Positions 1-19,055 of a DNA stretch of 21,121 nucleotides are shown one piece after another. Origin of the DNA: a virus. Lineage: Duplodnaviria > Heunggongvirae > Uroviricota > Caudoviricetes. Under the pieces are notes generated by a model that saw nothing but the letters and a program-made list of their open reading frames with translations, searched no databases and was not told the DNA's origin. The stretch is from the IMG/VR virus record IMGVR_UViG_2690316318_000022; one strand, given 5' to 3'. Each line of letters begins with the position of its first letter. Position 1 is the stretch's first letter. The translations under genes and the position numbers were made by a program.

Positions 1-276
1 TTCGAGAATGCCACGATCTTTTGCATCAATTTCCGACGTGATGCGAATGCCTTTGCGGGTCATATCATCCGGGATAGCATCGACTGCTTCGCCGATGATC
101 CAGGATGAACGATAGGACCATTCCACCAGCATGCGGTTACGACTGGTGAAATTAGCCCGGTAGGTGGATGCTGAGTGCTGGTTAGGTGTCTGCATCCCTA
201 CGCGGGCAATAAAATTCTCATAACCATCAGCTGTGGCCTGCGCAGTTCGCCGCAGGGCTTGTTTGTTTCGTGCCAT
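1..276 (-). CDS. Putative portal protein, N-terminal part (gene runs off the left edge)
   Basis: Minus-strand ATG at 274-276 overlaps the terL stop (ATGA), with GGGAGA SD-like upstream. Open frame continues to position 1 ([22 protein letters not shown]...). Assignment rests mainly on position directly downstream of terL; the family was not confirmed. Confidence 0.45.
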   Translation of the reverse strand, partial: MARNKQALRRTAQATADGYENFIARVGMQTPNQHSASTYRANFTSRNRMLVEWSYRSSWIIGEAVDAIPDDMTRKGIRITSEIDAKDRGILE

Positions 277-1898
277 CAGGCCTGTCTCCCTAGCAGCTCC
301 CAGATGTTCAGGACTGAATTCATTGGGGCATAGTTGATCATCACCGAGTCGGCAAGGTTTGGCGATCGGGTTCCATCAGGCTGTTTATCAATAACGATTT
401 TTCCCACACCATTAATGGAATAGGTCGGCTGCGAAAGCTCGATGATGAGTTTATCTTTGAGTGCCATGCTACTGCTGATTGAGATGATTTCGTCCGGGTT
501 GTAAGCCATACCTTCAACCACGGCGCGCCAGGTATTCTGAAAAAGTTTACGTAACCGCCACCAGCTCTGGGCTTTGGCGTTAGCGAAGAAGTCCTTGTTC
601 AGACGTGCGGCTTGCCCGTTGTCCCCGCGAACAGCTTCATCATCCGGATCAAATACCGCGCCACTACCTCGAAACGGTGTGGCAAGTATTGACGGTCGAC
701 GCGCAGCGTTACGCAGTTCGTTGATAGCGCGTGCATCGCCGCGAACGCCAGCGCCCAGCCCGTCCTCGTCAAAGCGAAACTCTTCGAGGTTGTCCTGTTC
801 GCAAAAGCCGAAAACCTTCTCGACGGACTGATAAATGTCGCTGCCCACACCGGACCATTCCCGCACATTTTCCAGGAGGAAGCCATGACGGGTGGAAAAG
901 GCATTTTTGTCCCTGCCTTCGTCGGCGACATCCATCGCGCCAAGTCGTTTGCCTGTTGGCTGGATACCCAGTTTGATATGCGCATCGACGGCAGCCTGTA
1001 CCCATTCGGATGGAATCAGAACGCCTTCCGCTGATGCGCTGTAGTTCAGATCAAGTTCCTGTGCCACCACCACCGGATTATCGATTTTCTCGCATTCCCT
1101 GCGATACCACTCTTCATCCTTGCGAGGATCATCCCGCCAGTGGAATGTGAATACCGGTATCTTCCCGCCATGACGCTTCTGAGCGAACGGGTTAGCCATG
1201 CCGTTAACTGAACTCAGGTCGATACGGCAACGCGTCGTTTGTGACAACGCCGCATCAATCAGCAGAGGACGCTGAAGGAATGCAGCCTCATCAACCAGAT
1301 AAAGCGTGGTACGGTCACCACGACCAATATTATCGCCAGCCTCGCCTTTGATAACGGCACCAGTTTCAGGAAACTCAACACGCATATATGGCGCGTGCTT
1401 CTTCTCGCTCCACGAACCGCGAAACTCTACAGGTAGCGTTTCCACGAACTTGCGTGCCTTCCAGAACAATGCTTTCGGGTCACCGGTGCTGTCGACGTAT
1501 TCCTCTTTACGGGAGCCGAAACCGATAACCATTTCTTTGTTGAAGAGACAAAGCGAGCAGGCCAGTCCGATCGCGGTCCAACTGAGCCCCATTTCACGGG
1601 ATTTTTCGGTAATACCATTCTCCCGATTGCCCCAGCGTTCCATAATCCAGTGGATCCACTCCTCCTGCTTAGGGAAGAGTAAAAACGGAATGGTCACCGG
1701 CAGGCCATAATCAATATTACGCGGGTCCGTTGTCATGCCCCAGTCGATGATGAACTGAGCCGGATTGGTTCGGTAAAACTGCTTCAATACGGGCAATATT
1801 TCAGGATTCTGGCGAATGCGCTGTAGGCGTTCCATCCGCCATTCAAAAACCATCTGGTAATCAGGATGTTTAAAATCGAAGGGGAATGGTAACGGCAT
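276..1898 (-). CDS. terL: Terminase large subunit (TerL)
   Basis: 540 aa ORF from the track. ATPase-like N-terminal region with a Walker B-like LYLVDEAAF, nuclease-type C-terminal region, immediately downstream of the small terminase gene; typical TerL size. Confidence 0.85.
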
Positions 1899-1900
1899 AC

Positions 1901-2473
1901 TTAGCCCATCATTTTTCTATACGCCTCTGCAGCCTGCTCCGGCGTTAAGTTGGTAATTTCTGTTCTGACGGGTCCTCCATCAGCGCCAGTCACTTCATTT
2001 TTGACGTTGTCTTTAAACGCCTGAACAGAAACATGACGCCCAAGCAACTCAAGGTTTTTAACCTTATCAGGCCACTTAATCTTTTTAAGGATCCCGACCA
2101 TTTCTCTGTCATCTCCTCGCCCCTCAAACATTTCAGCGAGGTTAAATCCACTCAGGTACCGACGCCACGATTCCGGCCACGCAGACAGAGGCTTAATACT
2201 TAAATCGTCCTCCAGGATGTCAGCCACATCGAGCCTGTCGATCTCAACCAGTCGCATCAGCACATAATTCGCATCAATGCCCAGTTGATCAATACGCTCC
2301 TGCTTTAGCTCGTTAATACGGGCGCGTATCTCAGGTTTACCGTATAGTTCAGCCCCCGTAACATGTGCTCGCCTGGAGACGTAGCCTGCGCGAATAGCTG
2401 CTTGTGTAGCATTCAGATCGACAAGAAACTCGCGACAAAACACCTCGTGTTTTGCTTTCAGCTTCTTAGTCAT
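1901..2473 (-). CDS. terS: Terminase small subunit (TerS), HTH-containing
   Basis: 190 aa ORF ending 3 nt before the terL start. N-terminal segment [25 protein letters not shown] resembles the conserved DNA-binding motif of small terminases. Confidence 0.75.
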
Positions 2474-2534
2474 TTTATTTTCCAGTTATCAGGTCATTAT
2501 CGAAGCCCCTCCTGGAAGAGCTTCTGTAATGCTA

Positions 2535-3059
2535 TTACCGGGACTGTTCTATTTGTCGGACACCAGCCAACTGGTTATTCGCCTTCTCGATGGCTGCCAA
2601 CAGTGGGTTAATCCACAGAACAGCCTGGCAATATGTCAACGTTCTGGTGGTAGTGGCACGATCACCGGCTGAGTCAATGTCCCCGGAATCGGCGTGCAAT
2701 GCGCTGGCGCGTAAACGGTTCGCGTAGTTGAGCAACCCGACAGCAATATCAACAGGAACAGGGAAATCACAGTTCTTTTCACGGAGCAGAACCTCACGGT
2801 ATTTGATGACTGTCTTCTCGTGACCGATGTCGACCAGAGAATTTAATCGGCTTGCGTTTTCTGCTATCTGGTTAAAACGATTGAAGTTTAATGCCTGATT
2901 AGCTATCACTTTCCCTTGATATTCAGCTTCACCTTCCGCTTTATCAGCCCGCAACTTTTCTGCCTGATACTTGCTGTGGTAATGGTTTGCAGACCAGACG
3001 AGCGCCCCAAAGGCAGAGAAGAAAAATGCCGCGATGACAATCTTATAAGTCAGCTTCAT
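2535..3059 (-). CDS. Rz: Rz-like i-spanin
   Basis: 174 aa with an N-terminal transmembrane segment (IVIAAFFFSAFGALVW) and a long charged, helical periplasmic region. Overlaps the 3' end of the endolysin gene by 17 nt and is last in the lysis cassette. Confidence 0.75.
   Translation of the reverse strand: MKLTYKIVIAAFFFSAFGALVWSANHYHSKYQAEKLRADKAEGEAEYQGKVIANQALNFNRFNQIAENASRLNSLVDIGHEKTVIKYREVLLREKNCDFPVPVDIAVGLLNYANRLRASALHADSGDIDSAGDRATTTRTLTYCQAVLWINPLLAAIEKANNQLAGVRQIEQSR
2636..2782 (-). CDS. Rz1: Rz1-like o-spanin (outer-membrane lipoprotein) embedded in the +1 frame of Rz
   Basis: Hand translation of the minus strand gives (M/GTG)KRTVISLFLLILLSGCSTTRTVYAPAHCTPIPGTLTQPVIVPLPPER-stop: basic N-terminus, hydrophobic core, lipobox LSGC and a Pro-rich mature peptide, wholly inside Rz. 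No in-frame ATG; GTG start assumed. Confidence 0.55.
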   Translation of the reverse strand: MKRTVISLFLLILLSGCSTTRTVYAPAHCTPIPGTLTQPVIVPLPPER

Positions 3060-3519
3060 TTACCACCCCACCAGCATCTTTAAACCTGGAAATCAGGTCA
3101 CCGATTTTATGTTCATACTGACCGTAACCTGCACCAGGTAACGACGCCCAGATATTGCTGCAACGGTCGATTGCCTGACGAATATCGCCACGGTCAATCA
3201 TCGGTAAAGCGCCACGCTCTTTAATCTGCTGCAGCGCCACAGCGTCCTGACTTTCTGGCGAAAAATCTTTCAGGCCAAGCTGCTTGCGGTAGGCATCCCA
3301 CCAGCGTGAAAGAAGCTGATACCGGCCTGCGGCTGTTGATTTAAGCTTCGGGTTTAGCGTGACAAGTTTGCGAGGGTGATCGGAGTAATCAGTGAACAAC
3401 TCACCTCCGACGATAACGTCATAACCGTGATTACGTGTCGGTTGTCGCCCGTTATCCGTTCCTTCTGACCATGCCACCATATCCAGGAAAGCTTTGCGTT
3501 GGGAATTTAGTGTCTGCAT
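3043..3519 (-). CDS. R: Endolysin, lambda R-like lytic transglycosylase
   Basis: 158 aa. Long identical runs to phage lambda R as I recall it (QRKAFLDM.AWSEGTDNGRQ.TRNHGYDVIVGGELFTDYSDHPRKLVTLNPKLKST.AGRYQLLSRWWDAYRKQLGLKDFSP.SQDAVALQQIKERGALPMIDRGDIRQAIDRCSNIWASLPGAGYGQ) and the same length. Confidence 0.9.
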   Translation of the reverse strand: MQTLNSQRKAFLDMVAWSEGTDNGRQPTRNHGYDVIVGGELFTDYSDHPRKLVTLNPKLKSTAAGRYQLLSRWWDAYRKQLGLKDFSPESQDAVALQQIKERGALPMIDRGDIRQAIDRCSNIWASLPGAGYGQYEHKIGDLISRFKDAGGVVNEADL

Positions 3520-3522
3520 GAA

Positions 3523-3864
3523 TTACTCCTTAGAGCCACCAAACTTGTTACCGATTACTCGCATTGCAGCCCCACGAATAGCATCGACACCGATCAGCCC
3601 AACACCACCACCAATGGCAACAGAAAGAGATTTAGGCCATCCAACATACTCAAGAGCGGATGCAAAGGTCAGCGTCAGAGCACCACAGAGCAAAATCTCA
3701 AGCGTTTTTCGTTTCCAGCCGCCGCCACCGCCAAAATAGGCAATGCGCAAGCCAGCCATAACAATTGACATAACCACTGCGCCCAACGGCGTATCTCCAC
3801 GCCACCAACTTTGTAAGAGTTCCAGTAAGTCAGGCCAGGAATGAGGAGCATTGTGCATTTTCAT
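3523..3864 (-). CDS. Holin, three predicted TMDs, probable dual-start (MKM) motif; the track ORF extends to 3882
   Basis: Three hydrophobic segments (LGAVVMSIVMAGLRIAYFG, LEILLCGALTLTFASALEYVGW, LSVAIGGGVGLIGVDAI) and a charged C-terminus, directly upstream of the endolysin. A strong SD GGAGGTGGGA lies 7 nt before the ATG at 3864, and a second in-frame Met follows two codons later. Confidence 0.7.
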   Translation of the reverse strand: MKMHNAPHSWPDLLELLQSWWRGDTPLGAVVMSIVMAGLRIAYFGGGGGWKRKTLEILLCGALTLTFASALEYVGWPKSLSVAIGGGVGLIGVDAIRGAAMRVIGNKFGGSKE

Positions 3865-3965
3865 ACTTCCCACCTCCGCCATTACGGGGTGTTGTTGAAA
3901 GGCGGGCCCTGCGTATACGCCCGTAGGATTGGGTTATGAGCCGTCCTTCGGTGGGCCCTGAATAC

Positions 3966-12632: not shown

Positions 12633-12683
12633 AAATATTCATCCCCCAGCTACGTGCTGGGGTATCTCATGAGGGAAAGTATA

Positions 12684-13325
12684 ATGTCACAGCCCGTATT
12701 AACTAATCACCTTAAAACTCAAATCATCAATAACGCACTTGAGAAAGCGGGTATTCCCAAACGTAAATCAGCACTACGAGCTGCTCGTGTTGAATGGGCC
12801 GAACGTGTTCGGCTTGCAGCTATCGGGGGCGTAGAGAAAGAAGCTGAAATATTAAAAAATATAAAAAAGATTGAATCCATGGTCACAAAAATCCCTAATT
12901 CATTAAAAACCAATAGTTCTTTAATTCGAAAAGATTGCTGCATATATCTCAATCTGGCTGGAGCCAGAGCAAACATTTATTTCAATGGCAACTACAGAGG
13001 TTATGAATCAGGAGCCCCCGAGCATATTAATAAAATAGCACCTGCAGAATTTACTCTACTTGGCGAAGATCCTCTGGTAACGGAGTTTTATAGCTTTGAT
13101 GCTCTCTACACACAAATTAAAAGTGATGAAACCGAAATCATACAGAACGTCAGCGCGGCTCTAAATAAAGTTCGGACAGTAAAACGATTACTGGATGTAT
13201 GGCCCGAAGCTAAAGAACTGCTTCCAACAGACGCACCGCCAGTCCCTTTAGCACCAGCAGTACATCGAGAGACATTAAATGAAATGATAGGCCTTCCTAC
13301 CAATACAGTGTCTGATACTCAATAA
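12684..13325 (+). CDS. Hypothetical protein (213 aa from ATG 12684; the track ORF starts at GTG 12654)
   Basis: SD GAGGGA 7 nt upstream of the ATG at 12684. Moderately AT-rich. 3' end overlaps the convergent gene by 7 nt. Confidence 0.5.
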   Translation: MSQPVLTNHLKTQIINNALEKAGIPKRKSALRAARVEWAERVRLAAIGGVEKEAEILKNIKKIESMVTKIPNSLKTNSSLIRKDCCIYLNLAGARANIYFNGNYRGYESGAPEHINKIAPAEFTLLGEDPLVTEFYSFDALYTQIKSDETEIIQNVSAALNKVRTVKRLLDVWPEAKELLPTDAPPVPLAPAVHRETLNEMIGLPTNTVSDTQ

Positions 13326-14008
13326 CAAGGGGGATGCTTATTATATGATTTTGAACATTTTACAATCTCGTTAAGAGGCGTGAAATCAAAATCTCTGAAT
13401 AACACATCAGGATACTTCGCTCTTGCTTTATCCAGCAAACCAGTTAAAGTATTTTTTGTGTTACCCAACATTGTATTAACCGCCACTACATGTCTAATTT
13501 CTGGAGGTTTATCTATACCACCAGAAATTGCTTCATTAAGAACCGACGCCAGTGGGGTTTGTCCCTTACTTGTTGAATCCCACAGCGTCATTAACAGACG
13601 AGCTGCGTCTATAAATAGCTTTTTGTCAGCATTTGGCTTGACAGTAATACCGGAACTACCTGAGCCAGAACCGGAACGTTCTATTGCTGCACTGGTATCC
13701 GATTTCATAGGATTAAATAACGGAAGCTCTGTACAACCGATACGCCGAATGAAATCCTTTGCAACATCTCTACCACAGAAAAAAGCCCCTGTACAATTTT
13801 CATCAGAGCGTTTTTTAAATGAAAAACAATAGTACTGATCGGTTAACGGATAACCGGAATAACTGGTTTTAGTTTGTCCAGTAATAAGTTTCAGGTGTGC
13901 AACAGGCTGAATAATAAAATCCCGAACTATCGCATCTTTTATGTCGTTACCACGGTGACAATAATATTCAGGTAATCCATTAGGCTGTCTCTTATTACCC
14001 ACAGTCAT
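13319..14008 (-). CDS. Hypothetical two-domain protein (229 aa): Cys/His-rich N-terminal region, SGSGSGSSG linker, C-terminal domain
   Basis: Strong SD AAGGAGA 7 nt upstream of the ATG at 14008. AT-rich by eye (about one third GC in sampled stretches). Antisense to the surrounding replication operon. Confidence 0.6.
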   Translation of the reverse strand: MTVGNKRQPNGLPEYYCHRGNDIKDAIVRDFIIQPVAHLKLITGQTKTSYSGYPLTDQYYCFSFKKRSDENCTGAFFCGRDVAKDFIRRIGCTELPLFNPMKSDTSAAIERSGSGSGSSGITVKPNADKKLFIDAARLLMTLWDSTSKGQTPLASVLNEAISGGIDKPPEIRHVVAVNTMLGNTKNTLTGLLDKARAKYPDVLFRDFDFTPLNEIVKCSKSYNKHPPCY

Positions 14009-16138: not shown

Positions 16139-16354
16139 ATGTCATTTAAATACCGGGATAATCCACTTTATTACAGGGCTGCAAGGGAAGCTTTGCGACT
16201 TGAACAATCCGGCGAATATGACCGGGCAGCGGAGGTCTGGGCAAAAGCCAACCGCGAATCACATCACGAACTGAATCAGGAATGGAGTGAACGCAGATCT
16301 GATTTTTGCCTGATGCAGAACATGCGTGAAAAGCGTAAGGCGGTCGAAGAATGA
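16139..16354 (+). CDS. Hypothetical small protein (71 aa)
   Basis: Track ORF with AAGGA SD, translationally coupled to neighbours. Confidence 0.45.
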   Translation: MSFKYRDNPLYYRAAREALRLEQSGEYDRAAEVWAKANRESHHELNQEWSERRSDFCLMQNMREKRKAVEE

Positions 16355-16650
16355 TCGTTTACGTTGCCGGGCCGATGAGCGGTTACGAGCAATTTAACCG
16401 CCCGGCCTTTCATTCCGCAGCAAAGAGGCTAACGGACAAGGGATATGTTGTGCTTAACCCCGCAACTTTACCCAATGGTTTGACACAGGCTCAGTACATG
16501 GACATCTGCCTCGCAATGCTTCGCTGTGCCGATACGATTTATATGCTCAAAGAGTGGGAGTACTCTGCCGGCGCACGTGCAGAAAACGCGTTGGCAGAGA
16601 AACTGGAATTGAATGTGCTTTTTGAAGAGTGGGATTCAGATGGCCTATGA
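16351..16650 (+). CDS. DUF4406-family protein (nucleoside 2-deoxyribosyltransferase-like fold)
   Basis: N-terminal VYVAGPMSGYEQFNRPAF...VVLNPA pattern characteristic of DUF4406, from memory. Confidence 0.6.
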   Translation: MIVYVAGPMSGYEQFNRPAFHSAAKRLTDKGYVVLNPATLPNGLTQAQYMDICLAMLRCADTIYMLKEWEYSAGARAENALAEKLELNVLFEEWDSDGL

Positions 16651-16909
16651 ACGTGAAAACCTAATCGAGAAGCATCTCGTCGCCGAAGTGAAAAAGGCTG
16701 GTGGGGTCGCCTTTAAGTTCATATCACCTGGTCGCCGCTCGGTACCAGATCGCATTGTTCTGCTACCTGGCGGCCGTCTCGTTTTCGTTGAATGTAAATC
16801 TCCCGGCAAGCCACCACGGCCTGACCAGTTGCGCGAGCATGAACGTCTGCGAAAGCTGGGCTTTACCGTGGTAGTACTGGATAGCAAAAATTTAGAGGGG
16901 ATATTGTGA
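16640..16909 (+). CDS. VRR-NUC domain nuclease
   Basis: PD-(D/E)xK-like core DRIVLLPGGRLVFVECKSPG. Start assigned to the ATG at 16640, overlapping the preceding gene's stop; the track ORF starts at 16613. Confidence 0.7.
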   Translation: MAYERENLIEKHLVAEVKKAGGVAFKFISPGRRSVPDRIVLLPGGRLVFVECKSPGKPPRPDQLREHERLRKLGFTVVVLDSKNLEGIL

Positions 16910-16914
16910 GACAA

Positions 16915-17640
16915 TCATTCTGAGCGATTTTTCTTGAGCTTAGAAGCTTTTAAAAAACATACTTTTAGTTGTTGTGTTTCTTTTATGCTTACAGGAATTA
17001 ATTTCCCCTCAATTCCTTCGACACTCATAAATTCAGAGCTATTTTTTTTACAGTTCCCCAAGACAAATTTTCCGTTATAGCTTTCGATAATATAAGCATC
17101 ATATTTTTTAGAATAAAAAAGAGGCTCATCTGATAAGTATGCCCATGCCCACCCAAGGACTGAAGGAAGCATTGCTATGGATATAAAAAGCATAACCCCA
17201 TGAGTTTTGTTTTTTATTCTAAATTCATTCCTAATAAAAACAGATACTGCCCTGACACTGATAGGGCTAATAAATCCCAATAGTATTGCTTGGGTAGCCA
17301 CATCCCTTATGGATTTTTCATAAAGGTATGAGCTACCGCCATATAAATACATTGTCCAGTATGAAAGCAAAGAGGCCAAAATGAAGAAAAATAAATACAC
17401 CCACCATGGAATATTCTTCTCTTCAGTATCAATATGCAGCAAAGCGACTAAGGTGCACAAAAGTCCTAATGCAATAACAGAAAATTTAACTATTTCCTCA
17501 ATCCCAATAGAAATAAAACTTACAGGGAATCCATAAAATGAGCAGTACCCTTTGTAAAAAGAAAAAGCCATAAAATAAAGGGCGGCCAAGAGAACCGTTG
17601 TAATTGATAAATCTTTTACATTCATGATGTTCAAGAGCAC
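16915..17640 (-). CDS. Hypothetical multi-pass membrane protein (241 aa), AT-rich antisense insert
   Basis: AAAGGTG SD-like before the ATG at 17640. About four or five hydrophobic segments in the first 170 aa and a charged C-terminal tail. About one third GC in sampled stretches, against roughly 55% in the flanks. Convergent with VRR-NUC and divergent from SNF2. Confidence 0.6.
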   Translation of the reverse strand: MLLNIMNVKDLSITTVLLAALYFMAFSFYKGYCSFYGFPVSFISIGIEEIVKFSVIALGLLCTLVALLHIDTEEKNIPWWVYLFFFILASLLSYWTMYLYGGSSYLYEKSIRDVATQAILLGFISPISVRAVSVFIRNEFRIKNKTHGVMLFISIAMLPSVLGWAWAYLSDEPLFYSKKYDAYIIESYNGKFVLGNCKKNSSEFMSVEGIEGKLIPVSIKETQQLKVCFLKASKLKKNRSE

Positions 17641-17663
17641 CTTTCTAATCAGGGATTTTCTTC

Positions 17664-19055
17664 ATGATAACTTTTAAACCACGTCCCTACCAAGATCTCA
17701 TCATCAATCATCAAATCGAGACCCTGCGCGGCAACATCTGGGCAGGGATGGGGATGGGTAAAACCGTAGCGACACTCACCACGCTGGAAGATCTTTTCAT
17801 GGCTGGAGCAGAAACACGCCCCGCGCTGGTCCTCGCGCCGCTACGCGTTGCAGCAAGCACTTGGCCTGATGAAGCTGTTAAATGGGGGCATCTGCGTAAT
17901 ATTGAGGTACAGCCGATCATCGGTAACGCCAAAGCGCGCTCTACAGCGCTGGCGAACAGCAACGCGAGCGTGTTCACAATCAACTACGATAACCTTGTCT
18001 GGCTGGTTGAAGAATTGGGAGAACGATGGCCGTTCGGTACTGTCATTCCAGATGAAAGCACCCGGCTAAAATCCTTCCGGCTGCGAGGTGGTGGTAAGCG
18101 CGCGGCGGCGCTGGGCAAAGTGGCGCACAAGTATGTCCGGCGCTGGATAAATCTCACCGGTACGCCAGCACCGAACGGCCTGGTAGATTTGTGGGGACAA
18201 TCGTGGTTTGTGGACCAAGGGCAACGTCTCGGGCGCACTTACGGCGCGTTTACCTCACGCTGGTTCAAATCGATACAGTTTCCGGGGCAGAGCTGGACCA
18301 AACTGGAGCCTTTTGCTCACTCACAGGGTGAAATACAGCGAGCGTTAGCCGATGTGACCCTCTCGCTGGATGCGGCCGACTGGTTCGATATCAAAGACCC
18401 CATCCATAACGTAATCCGCGTGGATATGCCGCCGAAGGCCCGTCAGCAGTATCGTGAAATGGAAAAGGAAATGTTCCTCGAGCTGAATGGCGAAGGCATC
18501 GAAGCACCGAACGCCGCGGCAAAGACACTGAAGTGTCTGCAAATCGCCAGCGGCGCAGTATACACAGATGACACCGGAAGTTGGTCAGAACTGCATGACA
18601 CCAAACTACAGGCGCTGGACAGCATACTGACCGAAGCAGCTGGCGCACCTGTGCTGGTTGCTTATCACTGGAAACACGATCTTGAACGCTTGCTTAAAGC
18701 ATTTCCTCGCGGTCGTCACCTCGACCAGGATCCACAGACACTACGTGACTGGAATTCCGGAAAGATTCCTGTTCTCTTTGCACACCCAGCCAGCGCGGGC
18801 CACGGTCTGAACATGCAGGACGGCGGAAACATACTGGTATTTTTCTCACATTGGTGGGACCTGGAGCAGTATCAGCAAATTATTGAACGTATCGGCCCAA
18901 CCAGACAGATACAGGCCGGACACAATCGTCCGGTATTTATTCACCACATTATTGCTGCCGACACTATGGACGAAATGGTGATGGAGCGGCGCAACTCAAA
19001 ACGAACAGTGCAGGACATCCTGCTCGATGCCATGAAAAAGAGAGGTATAGCATGA
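17664..19055 (+). CDS. SNF2-family (SF2) helicase/ATPase
   Basis: Q-motif PRPYQ, Walker A GMGMGKT, DExx-type motif VIPDEST, C-terminal helicase domain; 463 aa. Confidence 0.85.
   Translation: MITFKPRPYQDLIINHQIETLRGNIWAGMGMGKTVATLTTLEDLFMAGAETRPALVLAPLRVAASTWPDEAVKWGHLRNIEVQPIIGNAKARSTALANSNASVFTINYDNLVWLVEELGERWPFGTVIPDESTRLKSFRLRGGGKRAAALGKVAHKYVRRWINLTGTPAPNGLVDLWGQSWFVDQGQRLGRTYGAFTSRWFKSIQFPGQSWTKLEPFAHSQGEIQRALADVTLSLDAADWFDIKDPIHNVIRVDMPPKARQQYREMEKEMFLELNGEGIEAPNAAAKTLKCLQIASGAVYTDDTGSWSELHDTKLQALDSILTEAAGAPVLVAYHWKHDLERLLKAFPRGRHLDQDPQTLRDWNSGKIPVLFAHPASAGHGLNMQDGGNILVFFSHWWDLEQYQQIIERIGPTRQIQAGHNRPVFIHHIIAADTMDEMVMERRNSKRTVQDILLDAMKKRGIA

Follow-up and report, generated by a model that had tools for sequence, protein, structure and literature searches.

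The stretch analysed here, which we refer to as the window, comprises 21,121 nucleotides of the IMG/VR virus record IMGVR_UViG_2690316318_000022 (Caudoviricetes) and derives from an Escherichia coli prophage with its insertion site beside yfhL/shoB. Its early/replication operon runs in the order DUF2800, DUF2815, Nmad5, PolA, an ANR-like gene, DUF4406, VRR-NUC, a gap, an SNF2 helicase gene and an HTH gene, followed by the integrase gene. The gap, between the VRR-NUC nuclease gene (16640–16909, plus strand) and the SNF2/DEAD-box helicase gene (17664–19055, plus strand), contains only one long open reading frame (ORF). It lies on the opposite strand, convergent with the nuclease gene and divergent from the helicase gene, and encodes a membrane protein. 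The longest ORF that can be called mechanically spans 16915–17640 on the minus strand and is the 241-residue antisense frame, beginning with a GTG at 17640, that a first-pass annotation of the letters had described. The ATG at 17625 (MNVKDL...) is the start used by PGAP and by all homologues, which gives a coding sequence of 236 amino acids at 16915–17625 with its stop codon at 16915–16917. The RefSeq protein WP_001101051.1, present for example in strain MLI108K3, has the same length and position and differs solely by S28C. As annotated, the stop abuts that of VRR-NUC, at a distance of 5 nt from position 16909; the reported 23 nt to the helicase start applies to the GTG, but the likely ATG lies 38 nt from the SNF2 ATG at 17664. 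Rfam and tRNA scans of the window returned nothing.

The membrane-protein ORF is a genuine gene under purifying selection. The AT-rich block proper occupies 16910–17663, and the GC content of about one third that had been read from sampled stretches, against some 55% in the flanks, was borne out: the gene has a GC content of 0.343 and a GC content at third codon positions (GC3) of 0.326, compared with 0.54 and 0.56–0.57 for PolA and SNF2. Homologues at seven other loci are likewise low in GC relative to their surroundings. The open frame is not due to chance, because the probability of 241 open codons is about 1e-8 at the stop-codon frequency expected from the gene's own composition, and the 248 open codons observed exceed the longest run among 2000 shuffles, which was 166. 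The ratio of nonsynonymous to synonymous substitution rates (dN/dS), determined pairwise against homologues from E. cloacae, a thrips symbiont and a metagenome, was 0.09–0.14, similar to the 0.03–0.12 found for the neighbouring SNF2 gene, and nearly all homologues are 228–265 amino acids long and match from end to end. The first-pass observation of an antisense, AT-rich membrane gene is thereby confirmed, apart from refinements to the start codon and the C-terminus.

Hydropathy analysis and an AlphaFold2 model (pLDDT 82, pTM 0.81 for the whole protein) agree on five hydrophobic helices, at residues 8–31, 42–63, 74–96, 106–132 and 140–164, where four or five transmembrane helices had been predicted. 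This transmembrane part (residues 8–164) is encoded at 17134–17604 on the minus strand. It is followed by a domain (residues 165–236; 16918–17133, minus strand) that is predicted to be periplasmic and that had been taken for a charged C-terminal tail. A basic helix is indeed present in the model (residues 214–235), but it belongs to a confidently predicted folded domain of about 70 residues, in which it comes after a small beta-barrel of five strands between residues 170 and 211; the last 77 residues modelled alone reached a pLDDT of 88. The C-terminal domain did not combine a significant structural match to MazF/CcdB-like small barrels with conserved catalytic or interaction residues, and the AlphaFold2 model contains no other soluble domain.

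In an alignment of 36 family members sharing about 20% identity, a set that was also used for the family-wide Pfam and PHROG checks below, just two residues never vary, Cys192 and Cys223 (codons 17050–17052 and 16957–16959, minus strand). Tyr17, Gly26, Gly32, Pro34, Ile38 and Gly158 are nearly invariant. Conservation is highest in the first transmembrane helix and the loop following it, with Gly26, Gly32, Pro34, Ile38 and an F-Y-G-F/Y-P motif, and next highest in the C-terminal domain; helices 2–4 and the predicted cytoplasmic loops, which are short (family mean about 11–12 residues), are poorly conserved. No invariant polar residue suggestive of an enzyme was seen in this alignment. Family means of the net charge are +0.67 for the N-terminus, −1.25, +0.36, −0.42 and +1.19 for loops 1 to 4, and −0.39 for the C-terminal domain. 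This alternation, together with the positive-inside rule, leads to a predicted topology with the N-terminus inside and the C-terminus outside. Since the invariant cysteine pair lies in the predicted periplasmic domain, a periplasmic Cys192–Cys223 disulfide is its simplest reading and is what the conservation suggests. The short, poorly conserved cytoplasmic loops and the lack of a second soluble domain leave the protein with no obvious sensor of cytoplasmic events. A cleavable N-terminal signal peptide was considered and rejected, as an AxA-type site is missing and helix 1 is more conserved than any other helix; an enzyme that modifies the envelope in the manner of an O-antigen acetylase or glucosylase was rejected in view of the missing conserved polar residues and the lack of a family match.

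The family is rare, taxonomically narrow and uncharacterised, and consists of inner-membrane proteins. Among 1.8 billion representative proteins, a profile search yielded only 37 relatives, recovered with the profile of the window's subfamily at E values of 1e-23 to 1e-4. Those with a named host come solely from Enterobacterales (Escherichia, Salmonella, Enterobacter, Cronobacter, Serratia, Yersinia, Pantoea, Izhakiella and a thrips symbiont), and all of these are annotated as hypothetical. With the window protein as query, Pfam, NCBIfam, PADLOC and PHROGs gave no significant match; PADLOC-DB v2 gave no family at E values up to 10, and no Pfam or PHROG lysis family of the holin, antiholin or spanin type was matched. 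Pfam searches with all 36 members produced scattered chance matches only, a sequence profile search of the PDB produced chance matches to transporters at E 0.016 or worse, and Foldseek against BFVD found nothing at E 0.001 or better. No match was obtained when the window protein and four distant relatives were compared with 50,697 phage genomes by tblastn, nor did a profile search of genome contigs with the close-family alignment give a confirmed locus. The C-terminal domain alone, used as a query for other architectures, retrieved fragments of the same protein only. A literature search by RefSeq accessions and DUF6338 found nothing relevant.

The sole catalogued family tied to the window protein, through its relatives, is phrog_35408 of PHROGs v4, of unknown function. 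It is matched by 24 of the 36 members, collinearly over about 200 of its 228 profile positions and with a best E value of 1.6e-45; the window protein alone matches it weakly (E 2.5, residues 6–56), and the rest of PHROGs gave a chance-level match only. Because this PHROG carries no annotation, the link adds no function. The homology searches thus uncovered no clear similarity to a phage structural or lysis protein, and the idea from the first-pass annotation that the gene serves exclusion therefore survives as a hypothesis.

The junction between VRR-NUC and SNF2 is a cargo-exchange slot. Matches to the flanks of the 1.6-kb region around the gene occur in 155 of 5426 complete E. coli genomes, and 22 of those 155, or 0.4% of the complete genomes, carry the membrane gene. 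At least five other cargo types lie between the same flanks, all of them AT-rich (GC 0.32–0.45). In UPEC957C and 93_0495 the cargo is an antisense gene for the abortive-infection protein BstA (PADLOC E 1e-115), in BCE049 an antisense pair encoding a DUF6338 membrane protein and an 86-residue ORF, in OkiPb01695 an ORF of 108 amino acids, and in phage vB_EcoM-606R2 two ORFs on the operon's strand, one with a weak TIR match. IAI1 carries an antisense gene for a protein of 265 amino acids that is a 25%-identical relative of the window protein (E 7e-13). Alleles of the family also stand in for one another at this site: other prophages in IMG/VR encode PolA, VRR-NUC and SNF2 proteins 91–95% identical to those of the window and a membrane protein that is just 51% identical. 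In the 22 E. coli carriers, identity of the gene is 99.2% or more, whereas over the whole 1.6-kb region it reaches down to 96.6%. The same slot and orientation recur in Salmonella, thrips symbiont and metagenomic prophages that have other integrases and attachment sites; altogether, the gene lies antisense within the replication operon in the window and in seven related loci from other hosts and IMG/VR, which represent six distinct protein clusters.

Homology between sister prophages with differing cargo breaks at the edges of an exchangeable cassette spanning 16880–17685. It stops after the VRR-NUC codons for ...LDSK and restarts at the SNF2 codons for PRPYQD. The end of VRR-NUC (16880–16909) and the start of SNF2 (17664–17685) vary with the type of cargo among the loci compared (L002–L008, L011, L013, L028 and L032), and exchange therefore seems, from the sequences, to recombine within the conserved motif-coding parts of the flanking genes. 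A repeat search revealed no att-like or inverted repeats of note around the cassette.

Several of the alternative cargoes are poorly annotated. The BstA copies are full length (L004 1766–2698 and L006 1905–2837, both minus strand), and one of the two RefSeq records says only "hypothetical protein". Unannotated cargo was also noted at L005 (DUF6338 at 2084–2671, minus strand, with its 86-residue partner), at L007 (the 108-residue ORF at 1760–2086, minus strand) and at L002 (3301–4222, plus strand, including a 163-residue ORF with a weak match to TIR effectors). By position, the DUF6338, 108-residue, 86-residue and TIR-like ORFs are candidate defence genes. A comparison of the window family with its slot-mate DUF6338 by hhalign indicated no relation.

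Relatives also occur in a variety of other contexts. P0011, a relative with 69% identity, is encoded immediately downstream of an integrase gene, and other, more distant members reside in small AT-rich chromosomal islands of Cronobacter and its relatives. In one Cronobacter island the family gene is about 1.4 kb from a gene for a Tlde1-domain protein resembling effectors of the type VI secretion system (T6SS). In a decayed E. cloacae prophage beside proA (GCA_021426745, L009 5500–9600), SNF2, VRR-NUC and PolA are left only as fragments, and the membrane gene is an intact ORF of 236 amino acids. One distant member is found between the antiterminator gene Q and the holin gene of a lambdoid prophage (L020) and another between the integrase and holin genes of a prophage remnant, each on the holin strand. 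Such a scatter over the accessory sites of mobile elements typically fits genes for defence and for lysogenic conversion. The distant members upstream of holin genes were observed at L020 8001–8836, L021 45–793 and L018 8001–8767, in a slot other than that of the window.

These data identify the membrane gene as a well-delimited, presumably self-contained accessory cassette, or moron, of a temperate phage. The first-pass annotation had reached this reading from the antisense orientation, the base composition and the tight gene borders, and had argued that the promoter must lie inside the helicase coding sequence. The anatomy holds and is strengthened by the exchange slot with BstA and other AT-rich cargo. 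As to the promoter, pattern matching found a candidate sigma-70 site at 17664–17693 on the minus strand, in the 5' end of SNF2, with a −35 hexamer TTGGTA (17693–17688), an 18-nt spacer and a −10 hexamer TATCAT (17669–17664). The candidate −10 is the reverse complement of the SNF2 codons ATG-ATA, and the candidate −35 lies within codons of the conserved helicase motif P-Y-Q; both hexamers are conserved in relatives, in a manner inseparable from the coding constraint on the helicase. HK97 gp15, reportedly described by Cumby et al. in 2012, is a textbook example of a moron and is flanked by a promoter and a terminator of its own. For the membrane gene, the analysis showed no convincing terminator.

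For the function of the protein, we tentatively propose superinfection exclusion at the periplasmic face of the inner membrane, a role that we infer and regard as possible, if somewhat short of probable. Three features of the protein point this way, namely that it has no cytoplasmic sensing domain, that all its conserved parts would face the periplasm and that its conservation is not enzyme-like. The reading also draws on the position of the genes in prophage accessory slots, one of which is common to BstA, and on the deeply divergent alleles, which recall those of SieA. In the lysogen, the early operon would be silent and the cassette promoter hence free, so that the membrane gene could be transcribed from its own promoter, against the repressed operon, and the protein could be made. 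After induction, early transcription would have to cross the cassette to reach SNF2 and would oppose transcription of the cassette. The product would be a five-helix inner-membrane protein presenting its first transmembrane helix, first loop and disulfide-stapled C-terminal beta-barrel on the periplasmic side, from where it may block delivery of an incoming phage genome. Its targets might be the ejection or tape-measure proteins of the incoming phage or the host channel that is used.

One of the closest known systems is SieA of phage P22 (Leavitt et al. 2024, PMC10883804), which is encoded by a prophage and acts in the inner membrane to block the delivery of incoming DNA. The sieA gene is antisense and AT-rich (GC 0.337 versus 0.50), has an annotated promoter of its own and encodes protein types that are about 25% identical (PMC10883804), and SieA, like the window protein, is a multi-pass inner-membrane protein without enzymatic motifs. 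SieA is, however, smaller (162–164 amino acids and three to four helices, compared with 236 amino acids and five helices), its slot lies between genes 16 and 9 of P22-like phages and not between VRR-NUC and SNF2, and its conserved motif is predicted to be cytoplasmic, whereas the conserved elements and the cysteine-pair domain of the window protein are predicted to be periplasmic. Aligning the family profile with P22 SieA by hhalign gave a probability of 0.2%, and the SieA motif FxRYPxEAxxFNK is missing from the family alignment. Given the hhalign result and the predicted cytoplasmic location of the SieA motif, the resemblance is one of proposed function and of architecture, not of family membership.

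T4 Imm is a phage inner-membrane protein that stops genome injection (PMC11436027). Both Imm and HK97 gp15 are phage-encoded inner-membrane blockers of DNA entry, the role proposed for the window protein, but they are much smaller, with one or two helices each. BstA, a proven single-gene abortive-infection defence of prophages (Owen et al. 2021, PMC8585504), is encoded in sister prophages at exactly this site, antisense between the nuclease gene and SNF2; it is, in contrast, a soluble DNA-binding protein of 310 amino acids that acts on phage replication, and it has no similarity to the window protein in sequence or architecture. SNIPE (Saxton et al. 2026, PMC13190303) is an E. coli defence protein of the inner membrane, a nuclease that cleaves phage DNA as it is being injected. 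It is stationed at the site of genome entry, where the window protein is proposed to act; SNIPE has a nuclease domain, whereas the window protein has neither a cytoplasmic domain nor a nuclease motif.

Several observations weigh against exclusion. Searches of PADLOC, Pfam and NCBIfam, and hhalign against P22 SieA, did not relate the protein to any exclusion or defence protein characterised so far, and the slot shared with BstA amounts to guilt by association. A sigma-70-like site is present, but promoter-like sites are no commoner at the locus than in shuffled sequence. A literature search by RefSeq accessions returned no expression or phenotype data. In two prophage types, distant members share the strand of the holin genes and precede them by 41–128 nt, which would also fit a role in the lytic cycle.

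A further point concerns the integrity of the gene in E. coli, where 12 of the 22 complete genomes that carry it have an indel in it. The site involved is a run of eight A residues (T8 on the plus strand) at 17042–17049, read on the minus strand as AAA-AAA-AAT directly after Cys192. In all five representatives aligned, which span three single-nucleotide polymorphism haplotypes (the O26/O111 lineage, M-17 and A34), A8 has become A9. Eight other copies with a +1 shift, all from O26-type strains, lie outside the alignment and were assumed to share the O26 event, so that at least 11 of the 12 frameshifted copies are attributed to the tract, eight of them by assumption. Strain A34 has a second homopolymer insertion besides A9. 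For strain 97-3250, two independent assemblies agree on A9, which makes a sequencing error unlikely there. The A9 allele, represented by WP_001101050.1, truncates the protein to 195 amino acids; as Cys223 is lost, many lysogens seem to manage without the full-length protein. Possible reasons for the recurrence of A9 are that the gene is lost repeatedly, that the protein is costly, that the tract serves phase switching or that slippage rescues the allele. The loci compared at this tract were the window (17042–17049), L001, L023, L024 and L025.

The main rival to exclusion is lysogenic conversion unrelated to phages, in which the protein would alter the envelope and provide, for example, immunity to a periplasm-acting bacteriocin, contact-dependent or T6SS toxin, tolerance of stress or serum, or an advantage in colonisation. 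Genes of this kind show the moron signature just as typically, and conserved parts facing the periplasm would serve them as well. The proximity of the Cronobacter member to the Tlde1-domain gene fits this explanation, and so does the persistence of an intact gene in the decayed E. cloacae prophage and in islands without phage genes. No adjoining or co-oriented toxin gene, however, was present in the loci examined; no known immunity family was matched, and the slot-mates that can be identified are anti-phage (BstA and, weakly, the TIR-like ORF). We consider conversion of this kind unlikely, yet a serious contender.

Alternatively, the protein might be an abortive-infection effector whose five-helix bundle forms or opens a pore and depolarises the cell once the periplasmic domain has detected an incoming phage, so that the cell dies before progeny are made. 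This mechanism would suit a protein that spans the membrane several times, has a putative sensing domain and is encoded in a slot common to the abortive-infection protein BstA (PMC8585504); the many frameshifted copies would be in keeping with a gene that is costly or toxic, and there is a weak, non-significant match to SLATT_1 (E 0.7). The helices 2–4 that would line such a pore are, however, the least conserved part of the protein, there is neither a cytoplasmic sensor domain nor a partner gene, and PADLOC and Pfam show no significant similarity to known membrane effectors, all of which makes an effector of this type improbable. The injection-blocking or membrane-depolarising role put forward in the first-pass annotation keeps the rank of a hypothesis.

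A part in the lytic cycle, as a holin-associated or lysis-timing membrane protein or as a membrane anchor for replication, seems quite improbable. Besides the genes upstream of holins, it is favoured by the family's membership of a PHROG, that is, by its occurrence in phage genomes. Yet in the window the holin–endolysin genes (3043–3882) are about 13 kb away, and here and at the seven related loci the gene runs antisense within the replication operon. Most sister prophages lack the gene or have unrelated cargo in its place, and it is therefore dispensable for the phage. The absence of a match to holin, antiholin and spanin families speaks against a lytic role too, and in lambdoid phages the interval from Q to the holin gene is a well-known place for morons. 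That the gene currently does nothing in E. coli and is carried along as a neutral or decaying passenger, as its rarity and the frameshifted copies in at least three haplotypes might indicate, is very improbable in the face of purifying selection across a deep divergence, full-length conservation over about 37 representative clusters, two invariant cysteines and an intact copy in an otherwise decayed prophage.

If superinfection exclusion is correct, the protein would join a handful of characterised inner-membrane blockers of phage genomes, SieA, Imm and gp15 among them, whose mechanism is poorly understood. An unrelated, periplasm-facing family would then open a second way to study the passage of phage DNA through the envelope, and its genes could be used to predict which lysogens of E. 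coli, Salmonella, Enterobacter and Cronobacter resist phages. In its fullest form, the proposal would be a new, Enterobacterales-only, single-gene anti-phage family: a five-helix protein whose disulfide-stapled periplasmic small barrel recognises and blocks, or responds to, the genome-delivery apparatus, with divergent alleles swapped at prophage hotspots and possibly switched between A8 and A9. This extended version we regard as rather doubtful. If the protein proves unrelated to phages, it would be an ordinary lysogenic-conversion gene; the kind of element, a prophage accessory cassette, is familiar. Independently of function, a widespread prophage group has a defined hotspot of cargo exchange at its VRR-NUC/SNF2 junction; BstA is one of the cargoes there, and the DUF6338, 108-residue, 86-residue and TIR-like ORFs are for that reason cheap candidates for a defence screen.

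Elsewhere in the replication module, further genes of the window stand out. A second antisense, AT-rich gene (13319–14008, minus strand; 229 amino acids, GC 0.39, GC3 0.28) lies between Nmad5 and the DNA polymerase gene; neither Pfam nor PADLOC gave a match to it, and its site looks like a second accessory slot of the same operon. The nucleotide-modification-associated Nmad5 gene itself (12654–13325, plus strand) has a low GC content of 0.41 and is missing from some sister prophages. Between PolA and DUF4406 there is a small gene for an ANR-family, PerC-like regulator (16139–16354, plus strand; Pfam PerC E 4.6e-4, below the cut-off), which is frameshifted in IAI1 and BCE049. The position directly after the DNA polymerase gene, where the window has no TIR-domain gene, is taken by one in sister prophages and in vB_EcoM-606R2 (L005 311–1072, L008 311–1072 and L002 1810–2571), and looks like a further variable slot of the replication module.

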